The notes beneath the pieces are model-generated. The model did no database searches. It worked only from the letters and a program-made list of their open reading frames with translations, and was not told the DNA's origin. A DNA stretch of 64,000 nt, from positions 1 to 64,000 of the forward strand of contig RSEE01000091.1 in NCBI GenBank assembly GCA_003971905.1. Reading direction: 5' to 3'. This document shows, in pieces, positions 55,319 through 61,162 of the stretch; within the stretch, counting starts at the first letter, position 1; the number at the start of each line of letters is the position of its first letter. This stretch comes from Moniliella sp. 'wahieum' (Eukaryota). The position numbers and the translations under genes are program-made.

Positions 55319-56720
55319 TTAGGGTCCAAAGTCCACTGCCCGGTCCATGTCGGCAGCAGGAACAACCCAGTCGAGCAGCGTCATCAGCACCATATCCACC
55401 GCTGCCACAATGACAAACACCACCCCGCCGAACCAAGGATGGCCCGCTGCGTAGTAGCGGAGAAGCAAGCTGCCTCTCTCCAACGGCGGTGGCAGCTCGT
55501 CGTACACGATTTCCACACGCCGCGCCACCTCGGCCCAAGAGTACATCTCCTTCACCTTGGCATGAGCTAGGAACGGATCATGTCCCCACGTTCAATCCGC
55601 TCCACCGCCCGTAACGTCGTGTCCACCACATCGTCCTCGTCTGCCTCGGCCAGGAGACGAGGTCCGGAGGCAACACTTCCTCCACCCCGCCCACGCGCGT
55701 TGACACAACCAACAACCCGGCCGCAGCACCTTCCACCAAGCCCGTACCAAACGCCTCGGTGAGAGAGGTGTTGAGCAAAATGTCGCCGCAGTGCAGATGA
55801 GCCAGGACATCGGTACTAGCTACCGAGCCTACCAATTCGACACGATCCTGCAACTCGGTGCGCTCGCGCATCTGTTCCAGTCCGACCCGGTTTGGTCCTC
55901 GCCTCCGATCACGAATCGCACATGGGGGTGTGCGGCACAGATTCGCGGGATGGCCGCTTCGAGCAGATCGGTGCCTTTGCGGTACATGAGCCGGGACAGA
56001 ACGACGATCGTCACGAAAGTTCCGTGTTGGTGGGGGCGGGTGCGCGGGGGAAGGAAGTGGGTGGCGACAACGGCGTTGGGAATGACGCTGACTCGAGCCG
56101 GATCGAGCTGGGCGCGTAAGGCCGTGTTTTCCTTGCCAACATGGGAGACGGTGATGATGTGCCCGGTACCAGCCAAGAGAAAGCGAAGCAACTTGGAGGT
56201 CAGGAAGGACGCCACATTGTCCATCCCAAACAAGGAGTGGTCCGTAAACACGCTCTTGACCCCAATGCTCCCAGCATGCAACAACGCTTCCAGCCCCATT
56301 GACGACAAGGCTTGGTGCGCATGCACAATCTCAATTCGTTCCCGTACCACAATCGAACGCAGGAGCGGACCCAAGCCAAAAAAGTTGGGCAACGTATCTT
56401 GGCGCGCGACCACCGCATACGGTACATAGTACACCTTGATCCCTCGCAGGAGGTGACGCACCCCCACCCGCTCTCCATACGCGTGAGTGAGAATGACGAC
56501 TTTATGGCCCCGTGCGACCAGCGCTTGGGCCACCATGTAGATATGACCCTCCACACCCCCTAGGTTGGGAAGAAAAAATCCGACACCATCCTAAGTACAG
56601 TCCAATTGAACGCAAGGGTGGGGATGACGATTAGTTGCTCATCTCATTGGCCCAGGGGAATGGGGGCTTACAAGATCCGGTGCGGCCGGGAGGGTGGGGG
56701 GGAGGCCAAGGTTTGGTCCA
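55319..56720 (-). CDS. GPI3: GPI N-acetylglucosaminyltransferase catalytic subunit (PIG-A/Gpi3/Spt14); intron 56591-56671; no separate start exon found
   Basis: RPHRIL/MVSDFFLPNLGGVEGHIY; GHKVVILTHAY; IVHAHQALS; VFTDHSLFG; VSHVGKENTALRA; VIPNA; SRLMYRKGTDLL; LNTSLTEAFG; MYSWAEVARR. Confidence 0.93.
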
Positions 56721-59700
56721 GCAGGGGGTGGCAAGGGGAGGGGAGGAGGTAGTGCGCAGCAACGCCTGTGCCGCGGCGACGAGGGGGGGGTTGGGACCGG
56801 TAGCTAACACAGTCTCTGTCGCAGCGAGTACCTGGGCTACGAGCAGCGTTCGGTCCGCCTCGGCGGTCGATGGCACCGCGAGAGCCACGGTGAAGTGCGT
56901 AGCAAGGTCCTGTGCACGCTTGGTTAGCTCGCCGGCCTGGGCTTGAATCGCGGCTTTGCCCTTGGCGTCCAGACGCGGGATGACAGTGTGCAGGACGGCA
57001 TCGAGATGGGTGCTCAGCGTGGCGAGACGGTCAATGTGTAGGTTGGGCCGCTCGGCAGCAAATAGCGTGGTTTGTACAGGGAAGGCACGGTGGGTTTGGA
57101 TGGCTGGACAGGGGGGGGGGGGTAAGAGGGTTGCGTTCAGTGGGTTAGTATCCATCGACGAGCATCAGGTAGGAACGGAGGCGGTACTTACTCCACTCGT
57201 CTTGGTCAAGGAAGATGCGTTGGAGGAGGTAAGTGTCCCAGGCTTCGTGCGGGGCCTGTGACCAAAGCCATGTGGGCGTACAACAGTGCGATTCCGCGAT
57301 CGGCGCTGAAGCCAAGAGAGGTCCTTCGTCGGCTAGCGCTCCCCAGGGGGTGGGCGACGACGCCTTCTGCTCTCCGAGACGAACGAGGAGATGGGCGGCC
57401 AGACGGGCAGCAGCCAACGGATCTCCAGTTCATCGTCAGCAAGAAGATTGAGCAGCGCCGCCAGGCCCAACACTGGTCGTCCCAATACAGGGAAACAGGC
57501 AAACGCACCAAAGCGGCCAGCGCAATGGTACGAGTAGAGACCGGCTCTTCCTCTGCCGTCCCGGCATAGATCCGTTGCAGCGCCTGACGCGCGATGGCGG
57601 GGGGCGTAGTTTCCTCGGCCAAACGCCGACCAAGCAGGAGGAGAATCAGCTCCTTTTCTGGCACGCACGGCGTCTCGTCCGACCGCTTGATCAAGGCGGG
57701 AAGCGGGCCGACTTCCTCCTCCGGCGTGAGACTAAATGCCGAGCTAGACTGCGCCTTGAGGTACACCGAGTGGGCCAAAGGCCCCAACACGGTGGCCGAA
57801 TCCTCCGTCTCCTCGGAGGACGCCTCTTCCGACCCCAAGCCTCGCTCCTTTGGACCCGAACGACTTGGCGGGCCACCTGTCGTACAACCGGGTGCAGCTT
57901 CTCATCCGCCTGCGCCTTCCTTGCTAGCGCAACCAGGGAGGGCGAAGCGCCCCCATCCCGAGTCATGATCCACGTTGTGAACCAAGCGCCATGGAGCGCG
58001 TTGCTCCCCTTTGCTTGACCCAAAATATCCATCGCTCGTGCTTCGGCCTGGTCGAGGGGTGTGAGCGCAGCGACTGCCCAGGCAGCCTGCTCACGCACTT
58101 GCCACAGGGGGAGGAGAGTTGCGGCAGATATGCTGGATCAGCTCTTCGCCCACCGGATGAGCCGTGGGCGGAGTCGCAGTCGGGCCAAGAGTACAGGACG
58201 GCAAAGAGGGGGGTAGTGCGTACGTCCGCTGCCCCTCGCTTGCAAGCCACGAACCAGTTCTTCCTTGACAAACGCATCCACCCCCGGGAACTGGCCAATG
58301 AGGTCAGGGAGGGTGATGCTGAGCGAGGAAGCATGCGCATTGGCCACCTGCAACGTGAAATGCGCGTGACAAGCGTCGCATACAACATCAACGCCCCGTT
58401 TCGTACGGGCCATAGAGGCGAACGGAAGCGGTCGACCGCAAGGGGGATCAAGGGTCCCAAATGCATTCGGAGAGGGAACGAAAGGTTCTTGTCTGCCATC
58501 ATGTAGCGCAACGTATTGAACGCATGAATAGTAGGAATCTTGTTTTCGCTCTGAGCATCCGCCCCGTCGGCCTCAGCGATGGAGGCAAGACGCGCGACCG
58601 TCGCTCCTACAGGGTCAAGCTTGCGGACCGCCACAAACGCAGAGAGCAGCGCGACAACACTGTATCCGAGTCCGGCCGAGCGACGAGTGATTGTCAAGGC
58701 CCCGGCGGTCGGATCGGCAATCCTCTGGATAAATGATCGAGCCATGTAAAGGGGAGCGCACGTTGCTCCTCCAGAGGGGCTCGGAGGACAGCAATAGCAA
58801 CCTTGGAGAGAGCCGGGTAGATGGTCGAGAACGCGCCACGGTGACGGACGTGAAGCAACCAATGCATAAACGTTTCCCCCACTGACGCTAACTCTTCGGT
58901 GGTCCACACGCCTCCCTGGAGGGTTGACGAAACTACATCGGCAAGAAGAGTAGACCCTCCTTGATCCCACGCCAAGAATAGTGAAGGACGGCCTGGGCAC
59001 GGTTGCCTTGTCCTTCATTCGCTTCTTGCTCCTCGTACGCTTCGCCTGCACCCAACGCAGCCTCCCGCTCGTCCACCTCGCCCGCATTTCCCTCCGGCGC
59101 GGCCGAGGTAAGAATGGGGGCGACAAGGTCCCATACCTTGCAATATCCTTAACCACTCGACGGTTGGTCGATTGCACTTCACGCGCGTACTGGGTGCCCT
59201 CTTCGATTGCGGGGAGCGAGCTGTACATCCTTTGAAGTGTGACGAGTGTACCGTGCAACGGGTTGCTGAGGGCTGCACCAACCAAGCCTTTCCCCCCAGG
59301 GGGAGGAGAGGCCGCGGTCATGTGAACCTCCAAAAAGTCCAACATGGCGTGGATGGGTTGAAGCACAGGAGAAACAACTGCTTTTTTCGGAGAGGGAACG
59401 AGATCGAGGGGTTTGTACCCCAGCGGAACGTAGATCGTTTGGTACAACTGCAAAAGGGCGGCAGCAGTGATCGCCTCATGTTCCCGCGCAGCCAAGAGGA
59501 GACTCGAAGCAGGCTGGCGAGCGCTTTGTGCACTACTTCTTGCCCCTCAAGCCCAGGGAGGGGACGGGGGAACTTCTCCAAGAGCTCAACCGAGGCGCGG
59601 ATGGTGGTGTCGTAGGTCGAGTAGACCATCTCGAGCAACCGCCGCACCATGTCCTCATCCGCTACCGACAGTGCGGGGAATTGGTCTATCCGCTTTTGAA

Positions 59701-61162
59701 CCGCAGTGTCAACCGCATACGCAGGATCCACTCCATTGGTCAGGAGGGACCGGAGCATACCCATTGCCTGCGTAGTAGCAACGTACGTGGCATTGGTATG
59801 CAGGTGGTTCCGCACAAGCGTCACCAGCAAGTGAGAAATTCGTGCGCGTCATCCACGACCTGTTGCGCTTCGGCAACTTGCTCTTTTCTTGCCGACGACC
59901 TGCTGAGCACACGCGAGGCGGCATGGCTACTTGCGCGAAGCCGGTCAAGGAGTTGGATAAAGTACCCGCGGACAGCCGTGCGCGACTCGGCGAGAGACAA
60001 AGACGAATGTACTGCCGAGGTAGGCACCAATCATCTGTCGTTCCTTCGCAAGAAGGGGAGTGGCCAGCGTCTTGCTGCTCACCAACAGACCAAATGTGCC
60101 CACTTGGACTTCCGCATTGGCCGCTTCCGCCCATAGGGTCAGGAGCGAGTCGGGCACCTCAACCGTCACACCGCGAGAGAGAATAGGCGGAGAACCTAAA
60201 TTGGGCTCGTCCGATCCGGTGATGACCATCCCCATCTCCTTCCCCACACGGAGAACCGTGAGCACAGCAGGGGCCTTGAGCGTCTCGAGGGGCGCAGAAG
60301 GGGTGCAGAGCGCATGTAAGAGCTGGGGCAGCGCATGTCGCGAGAGGGCAAAGAGATCGGGAAGGTGATGAGCAGCAATGACGGATCGTTGGCGCATGGT
60401 AGTATGGATCAGAGTGTGAGCGAGGGGCTGGACCCAGCTCGACGTCCACGCCTCCCATGCGGAGGATACGTCAACCTCCTCAGTAATAAGAGGAAGTCCT
60501 TTCTTGAAACTGATCCCGAGCCGACGAGCATGTTCTGCCAACAGAGCAACAGCAACACGGGAACGGCGACGGTAGTTGGTTTCTACCCCTCGGGGGACGG
60601 AGAGCAGGCCTGCGTAAATGGAAAAAGTTGGGGTGGAACCAAAGAGGCTCGTGTCAAAAAAGATGTCCAACGAGCCCGTAGCGGACCACAGGGCTTCCAG
60701 CACATGGAGGGCCTGTTTGCGCAGCATGTGTGCTTGGGCATGAGCAATGAGGCGTTGAACCGAAAGGTTGGATGCGACTGCACCGGGTAGATGGACAAAC
60801 GCATTTACTAGGTCCGTCGCCGCAGTGGTAGCCGGAGCGTCAGGCGAGGCAAAGCCCGTCCAGGCCGTGTCGGCGAGCAAATAGGCCGTGCTGGGTTCAA
60901 TAGTCCACTCTTGGGCAGCTGCTGCCAGGGCAAAGTGGGCGAGCACGACCAGGCGCTCTGGCAGCTGAGGTGCGCTGGGAAGGGCGGACAGGGCAGCGGC
61001 CAAGTGTGCCTGGGCCGAAGCGGGATCGGAGGCGTGCTCCATTTGGGACACCAGCGGTGCCACCTCGGCAGGCAAGACGGGCACCACGGCTGCTGCGCCC
61101 GATGTTTTGACGCCCTTGACCTTGGCGCGCCCGATGGCGGCGGGAAGGGCAGCACTGGCCAT
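56672..61162 (-). CDS. TRM732: THADA/Trm732 (DUF2428) tRNA 2'-O-methylation cofactor; intron 57104-57191; 3' end runs into PIG-A
   Basis: Long helical-repeat protein with VGETFMHWLLHVRHRGAF, TITRRSAGLGY, IHAFNTLR, WPVRNGALMLYATLV and C-terminal LFAAERPNLHID. Confidence 0.85.

Follow-up and report, generated by a model that had tools for sequence, protein, structure and literature searches.

A probable THADA/Trm732 and PIG-A gene fusion conserved in Ustilaginomycotina and interrupted by probable single-base assembly errors in Moniliella

Results

Two coding regions joined by a short intron

The window analysed here is the whole 64,000-nt stretch at positions 1 to 64,000 of contig RSEE01000091.1 from Moniliella sp. 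'wahieum' (assembly GCA_003971905.1). Its minus strand carries two adjacent coding regions, one for a relative of THADA/Trm732 and one for PIG-A/Gpi3, which probably belong to a single gene. Stop-to-stop open reading frames (ORFs) from 61258 to 56631 hold the THADA/Trm732 domains in Pfam searches, and those from 56590 to 55319 hold the PIGA and glycosyltransferase family 4 (GT4) domains. The THADA start codon is the ATG at 61162, and the PIG-A stop codon lies at 55321-55319. The PIG-A part is nearest to PIG-A proteins of Ustilaginomycotina (Tilletia, Pseudozyma, Sporisorium, Malassezia), with 60-66% identity.

The last 'THADA' exon (56672..57103, minus strand, 432 nt) encodes the helices at the C-terminus of THADA, then a linker rich in Pro, and finally the opening residues of PIG-A, and it was matched by both tblastn and alignment to residues 1287-1369 of P0011, a fused protein model from Tilletiaria. 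The exon stops immediately before a GTAAGC donor and is followed by an 81-nt intron (56591..56671, minus strand; 27 x 3 nt) in phase 2, with the signals GTAAGC, AACTAAT and TAG. A first-pass annotation of this DNA had described the exon, its donor, the intron, the CTAAT branch site and the TAG acceptor, all of which were reproduced in the sequence. Exactly the same intron, 56671-56591 in phase 2, was also chosen by an independent protein-to-genome alignment guided by P0011. The alignment procedure was written for this analysis and permits frame shifts as well as GT-AG introns. On this evidence, the 81-nt intron appears to be more than a chance arrangement of splice signals.

Splicing across the intron produces one frame that reads RPHRIL and then MVSDFFF, with the first PIG-A-domain residues RPHRI-L encoded within the last THADA exon at 56688-56672 and completed by one base from the exon that follows. 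After splicing, the THADA frame, which is offset by one base, would read GRTGS followed by a TGA that overlaps the PIG-A ATG. If the intron is left unspliced, a TAA stop directly follows RPHRIL. The join RPHRIL|MVSDFFF had been proposed in the first-pass annotation and was recovered here, but the continuation given there, MVSDFFLPNLGG, silently spans a second frame break near 56569. This break falls 8 codons past the PIG-A ATG, where one further base is missing. The ATG frame as assembled reads MVSDFFFPT and then a stop, and the PIG-A body, beginning NLGGVEGHIY, lies in yet another frame. As assembled, THADA, the junction peptide and the PIG-A body occupy three different frames.

A scan of the 432-nt last THADA exon found no in-frame ATG in either relevant frame. 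The sole ATG of the exon (56999..57001, minus strand) had been described as out of frame and soon stopped, and it does open the third frame for 25 codons before a stop. Two more ATGs lie inside the 81-nt intron, each soon stopped.

The one-base offset between THADA and PIG-A, and the C-runs around it, were confirmed. On the minus strand these runs comprise C8 at 56790-56783, C4 at 56743-40, C4 at 56738-35, C5 at 56728-24 and C7 at 56702-56696. The narrower site of about 56695-56750 suggested earlier for the missing base could not be fixed. The P0011-guided alignment puts the shift near 56823, and a codon-bias scan finds frame -3 best down to a scan-window centre of 56749 and frame -2 best at 56740-56704, which places the shift at about 56750. 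Because the linker is not conserved, only a zone can be given for the change from frame -3 to frame -2 (56690..56830, minus strand, rich in C-runs).

Fused and split models in related fungi

Among the matches listed, gene models of nine relatives hold THADA and PIG-A in one protein, an architecture for which the first-pass annotation had suggested a search. THADA and PIGA Pfam domains occur together in 6 of the best 120 PIG-A matches longer than 443 aa, from Testicularia, Tilletiaria and four Malassezia. One of the best 150 cluster representatives is also fused (P0121, with the PIG-A match at residues 1459-1685 of 1884), and a search that took the C-terminal region of THADA from a smut as its query added fused models from Kalmanozyma and Thecaphora. 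The fused models include those of Tilletiaria anomala (P0011, 1850 aa), Testicularia cyperi (P0008, 1893 aa), Kalmanozyma brasiliensis (P0286, 2218 aa) and Thecaphora frezii (P0291, 2260 aa), as well as Malassezia nana (P0009), M. caprae (P0014), M. psittaci (P0015) and M. furfur (P0016, partial).

Residues 18-1849 of the Tilletiaria protein are collinear with positions 60877-55331 of the window (minus strand), with 791 identical residues among 1744 aligned codons and no gene between the two parts. The best path contains an 88-nt intron, one shift of the 'base missing' type and the 81-nt intron, and then enters PIG-A. The junction itself recurs in the protein models of relatives, where the first-pass annotation had proposed to look for it. 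The Tilletiaria sequence LLRPHRIA|MISDFF is near-identical to RPHRIL|MVSDFF in the window, and other fused models read RYSIA|MVSDFF and RVA|LISDFF.

Models in which the two proteins are annotated separately carry the same residues. Twelve of 13 'separate' THADA models (1754-1911 aa, those of Ustilago, Sporisorium, Pseudozyma and Melanopsichium among them) end exactly in Y[N/K/S]IA, and the thirteenth is truncated. The linker before this ending varies freely among them. In Sporisorium scitamineum and Pseudozyma hubeiensis, PIG-A models from contigs equal in size to those of the THADA models start at MVSDFF. With the intron position in relatives deduced from the ORF ends of protein models, the end of the ORF right after the final Ala would reflect read-through of a phase-2 GTAAG donor, like TTG-TAA in the window. 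Public annotations thus seem to disagree over what looks like the same gene, which is sometimes fused and sometimes cut at the intron. A further protein of this type, P0290 (1766 aa), is labelled Cichorium endivia, a plant. Its sequence is that of a smut-type THADA, with SRYNIA as the last residues and 51% identity to the query from a smut, and it probably comes from fungal contamination of a plant assembly.

Junctions of the Malassezia type, comprising five fused models including P0121 and two of the M. globosa type, have Leu in place of Met at position -2 relative to SDFF (RVALISDFF, RIALISDFF, CIALLSDFF), and PIG-A therefore cannot initiate there in that genus. The two M. globosa-type proteins (P0012, which is MGL_1728 of Malassezia globosa, and the near-identical P0013) are annotated as PIG-A of 447-449 aa with an odd N-terminus, PIDDRLLSDFF, unlike R[I/V]ALISDFF. 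These models may have been extended across non-coding sequence in order to reach an ATG. Some Tilletia PIG-A models (P0002 and P0004 from T. horrida, P0003 from T. laevis) are merged with an SHR3-like domain downstream and tRNA-synthetase domains upstream, not with THADA. To judge from these sequences, the THADA fusion seems to be absent or lost in Tilletia.

The end of 'THADA' and the first strand of PIG-A

An SDFF-type motif is present in 116 of the best 120 PIG-A matches, and 95 of the 116 have at least six residues before it, six of these 95 being the fused models themselves. Among the 95 extended models, Tyr stands at -6 in 66, Asn at -5 in 64, Ile at -4 in 85, Ala or Cys at -3 in 91 and Met at -2 in 86. 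By this comparison, Y-N-I-A-M-V-SDFF is the canonical start of PIG-A. Since the 'THADA' ORFs end in this N-terminus, the end of 'THADA' would be the beginning of PIG-A.

The same boundary was examined in an AlphaFold2 model of the partial fused protein of M. furfur (P0016), built on 39 aligned sequences that were fused or contained only THADA or only PIG-A. The model has a mean predicted local distance difference test (pLDDT) score of 79.3 and consists of a helical solenoid up to residue 653, a linker at 653-739 with pLDDT below 50, and then a GT-B fold closed by a long C-terminal helix. Its C-terminal half matches GT4 enzymes such as MshA and BshA. The first beta-strand of the GT-B part (E746-750, CIALL) begins three residues before the Met-equivalent, and in this predicted model the residues upstream of the Met-equivalent appear to belong to the first beta-strand of PIG-A. 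A phmmer search of PIG-A (P0007) against PDB sequences returned no solved structure at E <= 1e-20, and the strand boundaries therefore come from the predicted model only.

In the window, the strand residues R-I-L are encoded 5' of the 81-nt intron. Given that no ATG occurs in either relevant frame of that exon, PIG-A has no start codon of its own that would include them. The proposal that the exon end is translated in the PIG-A frame is supported by the match of RPHRI to Tilletiaria RPHRIA and to the PIG-A consensus, and by the place of these residues in the first strand of the P0016 fold.

Probable single-base errors in the assembly

Alignment guided by P0269, the closest THADA relative, gave 883 identical residues among 1359 aligned codons, with 17 shifts between 61249 and 57166 and no intron. 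Fourteen of these shifts are of the type 'one nt missing' and three 'one nt extra'. The P0011-guided alignment added five further shifts, each with one nt missing, in the region that starts with the last THADA exon and runs to the end of PIG-A. The whole gene shows at least 22 single-base frame breaks in about 5.8 kb, of which 19 of 22 lack one base, and the offset at the junction has the same direction as this commonest type of break. With an indel roughly every 270 nt, it is expected and unremarkable that the 432-nt exon should contain a break. Two extra shifts at 55495 and 55474, from an alignment guided by P0001, fall in a poorly aligned stretch and were not counted. The fused models P0008 and P0286 were also tried as guides; they gave noisy paths with implausibly long 'introns' in unconserved parts and were disregarded.

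The high-scoring segment pairs (HSPs) of PIG-A in tblastn abut, lying 0-3 nt apart with an ungapped query, and the interruptions are therefore breaks and not introns. Five breaks that were read closely, four in this gene and one in the neighbouring aminotransferase gene, lie at or beside short homopolymers or doublets. The stretches between breaks remain open and are well conserved, with the RRSAGLG motif, the E-x7-E motif and the membrane anchor described below all intact. The pattern of breaks in the sequence is consistent with sequencing error, not gene decay.

The aminotransferase gene on the plus strand contains a zero-gap frame shift at about 54573 (54560-54590), where GRVLRL is followed in another frame by DSFSKILSAGLRIGF. 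The break falls at a run of T that immediately precedes the SFSK lysine motif. It is a one-base loss like those in the THADA-PIG-A gene, and the only unambiguous break in a neighbour. A Pfam scan of 191 ORFs for frame breaks in other genes of the window showed domains split over overlapping ORFs in different frames in the genes for GT41 (OGT-like), RhoGEF, Pex16 and ABC-ATPase proteins (17090-18402, 20336-22271 and 43645-45249 on the plus strand, and 7229-8658 on the minus strand). These splits probably represent more assembly indels and were left out of the count because the gaps could hide short introns.

Features of the THADA/Trm732 and PIG-A/Gpi3 parts

The main THADA/Trm732 exon (57192..61162, minus strand) encodes an alpha-solenoid with TPR_Trm732 and DUF2428 domains, recognized by Pfam and by the P0269-guided alignment, and holds the 17 single-base frame shifts as assembled. 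Searches with single-frame pieces gave TPR_Trm732 (PF25150) at 8.6e-09 and 35.7 bits, and DUF2428 (PF10350) at 3.2e-17 and 63.1 bits, both against a cut-off of 27. TPR_Trm732_C (PF25151) has a weak match below that cut-off (E 0.0035, 17.7 bits against 27) on a fragment of 148 aa that frame shifts have truncated, and precomputed domains list it as present in the relatives P0269 and P0011.

A RRSAGLG sequence (58665..58685, minus strand) is the counterpart of motif 2 of Trm732 (RRSAGLP). Six of seven residues match, the last being G, not P, and the relatives' version of the motif is RRSAG[L/I][G/A]. Motif 2 is described as required for Cm32 formation in both yeast and human (PMC9088939). An 88-nt intron in phase 1 (57104..57191, minus strand; GTAAGT, TACTAAC, CAG) precedes the last THADA exon and was picked by the P0011-guided alignment. 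The ORF-type model P0269 of a relative runs into the region of this intron and stops there. The 3' end of the intron (57104-57130) consists of a 12-C run and then TGTCCAG, which is another long homopolymer in this error-prone assembly.

The PIG-A/Gpi3 exon (55319..56590, minus strand) begins with G and the ATG of MVSDFFF and ends at the stop codon at 55321-55319. Its ORFs match PIGA (PF08288, 1e-36) and the GT4 N- and C-domains (PF13439, 3.5e-25; PF00534, 1.6e-10; PF13692, 2.3e-11). Four 'one base missing' shifts interrupt it, at about 56569, 55898, 55655 and 55584, according to tblastn, alignment and local reading. Identity to P0001 in tblastn is 65-82% in four of five HSPs and 44% in the C-terminal HSP. 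The sequence TEAFGTGLVE (55731..55760, minus strand) contains an intact E-x7-E motif, as in retaining GT4 enzymes. A C-terminal hydrophobic stretch (55361..55435, minus strand) is presumed to be the endoplasmic reticulum (ER) membrane anchor of PIG-A, and its counterpart in the folded P0016 is the long helix H1121-1157.

Neighbouring genes

A prefoldin-subunit gene is divergent to THADA, with about 210 nt separating the two ATGs (61162-61375). On the other side, the stop of a convergent class I/II aminotransferase ORF (55308) lies 10 nt from the PIG-A stop (55319). Judged by these two spacings, the genome is very compact. It is also GC-rich, the GC fraction of the window being 0.48-0.68 in 2-kb windows.

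Discussion

We consider it likely, with good confidence, that the locus is one gene for a THADA/Trm732-PIG-A protein of about 1,890 aa that would be conserved in Ustilaginomycotina (smuts, Malassezia and Tilletiaria), and that the frame offset in the window would be an assembly indel. The first-pass annotation had offered as one of two options that a missing base hides a Trm732-Gpi3 fusion of about 1,900 aa. The coordinates agree with that length, and the option gains support from the fused and split models of relatives, from the start of PIG-A at the ends of 'THADA' models, from the number of indels and from the break in the aminotransferase gene. The protein would have four parts, namely a THADA/Trm732 alpha-solenoid that takes up about 1,400 aa at the N-terminus, a flexible Pro-rich linker, the PIG-A/Gpi3 GT4 domain and a C-terminal membrane anchor. 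The last THADA exon would supply the start of PIG-A beta-strand 1 (R-I-L), and the 81-nt phase-2 intron would join it to M-V-S-D-F-F. Both the splicing of this intron and the single-chain protein are predictions from the gene structure and its relatives.

Several observations weigh against a single fused gene. As assembled, the THADA and PIG-A parts are out of frame, and the missing base is not pinned to one site (about 56823 versus about 56750). The window has Leu at -3, a residue seen there in none of the 95 extended models. In the databases at least 12 THADA and 5 PIG-A models are split, and the fused proteins of relatives are automatic gene models. The Tilletia PIG-A models P0007 and P0003 are preceded by another sequence, which shows that not all members of the subphylum have the fusion. 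In addition, 21 of 116 PIG-A models start at MV or MI, including P0101 of Schizosaccharomyces pombe, which suggests that PIG-A translated from the internal Met could be viable. In the species that keep this Met, an internal promoter may give rise to PIG-A as a separate product.

These points lead to the most serious alternative, in which two tandem genes are separated by a tiny gap. THADA would end in RPHRIL at the TAA inside an unspliced 'intron', PIG-A would be made from the ATG at 56589, either on a separate transcript that begins within the 3' end of THADA or through reinitiation, and the fused models would be gene-finder read-through. Such an arrangement would fit the split form of 12 THADA models and of the PIG-A models P0001, P0002, P0004, P0005 and P0006, the retention of Met in the window and in smuts, the MV or MI starts just mentioned, and the very compact spacing of the prefoldin and aminotransferase genes. 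Against it, the last four or five 'THADA' residues match the canonical PIG-A N-terminus and are conserved while the linker drifts, they form part of beta-strand 1 in the predicted fold, and Malassezia has no Met at this place. An unspliced leader would also hold the two upstream ATGs in the intron, and the room for a promoter would be only 42 nt counted from the THADA-frame stop (56633-56631) to the ATG at 56589, or 80 nt counted from the donor TAA (56670-56668). We therefore regard two tandem genes as unlikely.

The second option of the first-pass annotation takes the assembly to be correct, with splicing creating T|GATG so that the THADA TGA overlaps the PIG-A ATG and PIG-A is translated by termination-reinitiation or programmed frameshifting. 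The spliced THADA frame as assembled does end in GRTGS-TGA over this ATG. Yet about 130 nt would have to be exact in a gene with so many indels, the ATG frame itself breaks 8 codons on, the relatives are in frame, and the match of RPHRI to the Tilletiaria junction and to the PIG-A consensus would be left unexplained. A stop-start overlap of this kind is very unlikely. The number of frame shifts in one gene could also point to a decaying pseudogene copy, with functional THADA and PIG-A elsewhere in the genome. The shifts are, however, mostly single missing bases, and those read closely sit at or by homopolymers or doublets; the sequence between them is open and conserved against P0269 in THADA and against P0001 in four of five PIG-A HSPs, the catalytic motifs are intact, and an unrelated neighbour gene has the same defect. 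Gene decay is accordingly a very unlikely explanation, and we retain the reading of one fused gene broken by sequencing errors.

Each half of the predicted protein resembles an ordinary member of its family. Trm732 of S. cerevisiae and human THADA are the partners of Trm7/FTSJ1 for 2'-O-methylation of tRNA position 32, and the FTSJ1-THADA structure has reportedly been published. The window protein shares with them TPR_Trm732, DUF2428 and the RRSAGLG motif, and a related fused protein has the all-helical solenoid in its predicted fold. It differs in carrying a whole PIG-A with its membrane anchor at the C-terminus and in the final G, not P, of motif 2. With PIG-A/Gpi3/Spt14, the catalytic subunit of the glycosylphosphatidylinositol (GPI)-GlcNAc transferase, it shares the PIGA and GT4 domains, E-x7-E and the hydrophobic anchor, whereas its PIG-A is extended at the N-terminus by about 1,460 aa and takes the first-strand residues from the upstream THADA exon. 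The deposited fused models agree in domain order and junction motif, but they share only 33-66% identity with the window copy, which assembly indels interrupt.

Fusions of PIG-A with an N-terminal partner exist elsewhere, as in the PIG-H and PIG-A fusions P0131 (796 aa) and P0141 (707 aa). PIG-H, however, is a known subunit of the same complex, whereas THADA is, to our knowledge, not known as a member of the GPI-GlcNAc transferase complex. In the representative library, other PIG-A fusions carry an acyltransferase domain (P0128) or EH/EF-hand domains (P0260). Literature searches, including ones with Ustilago and Malassezia, returned no paper on a fusion of THADA, Trm732 or DUF2428 with PIG-A or GPI3 among the matches listed, and a term search of a PIG-A family paper found Ustilago, Malassezia, fusion and fused absent (PMC2446393). 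The combination appears to be known only as unremarked database models named after PIG-A.

For genome annotation, the findings suggest that in at least 12 smut genomes 'THADA' ends in four or five residues of PIG-A, and that the PIG-A models P0001, P0002, P0004, P0005 and P0006, which start at MVSDFF or MISDFF, are without the PIG-A first-strand residues. Any inference from reading frames in this window needs a polished assembly first.

The catalytic domain of PIG-A is cytosolic on the ER and anchored C-terminally. For this reason the fusion would keep Trm732/THADA attached at the cytosolic side of the ER, in a 1:1 ratio with the catalytic subunit of the GPI-GlcNAc transferase. If the 81-nt intron were retained, translation would end at the TAA within the donor and yield THADA by itself. 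THADA has a proven role in tRNA methylation and disputed ER and metabolic roles. It has reportedly been linked to SERCA and the ER (PMC5392496, PMC9950491). Fusion to an ER-anchored enzyme gives a testable pointer to the place of action and the partners of THADA.

PIG-A/Gpi3 is an antifungal target of jawsamycin (PMC7341893). If Malassezia and smuts are confirmed to have a fused form of 210 kDa, this would bear on antifungal work. A more speculative possibility, which we hold to be doubtful, is that the fusion acts as a 'Rosetta stone'. Its retention across the subphylum would then mean that THADA/Trm732 acts alongside the GPI-GlcNAc transferase at the cytosolic ER face, where it either scaffolds or regulates the initial step of GPI synthesis or couples methylation of the tRNA anticodon loop to ER-bound translation. 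Were this the case, splicing versus retention at the phase-2 GTAAG donor could switch between the fusion and free THADA, and an old association would lie behind the ER-linked roles outside tRNA that are debated for animal THADA.

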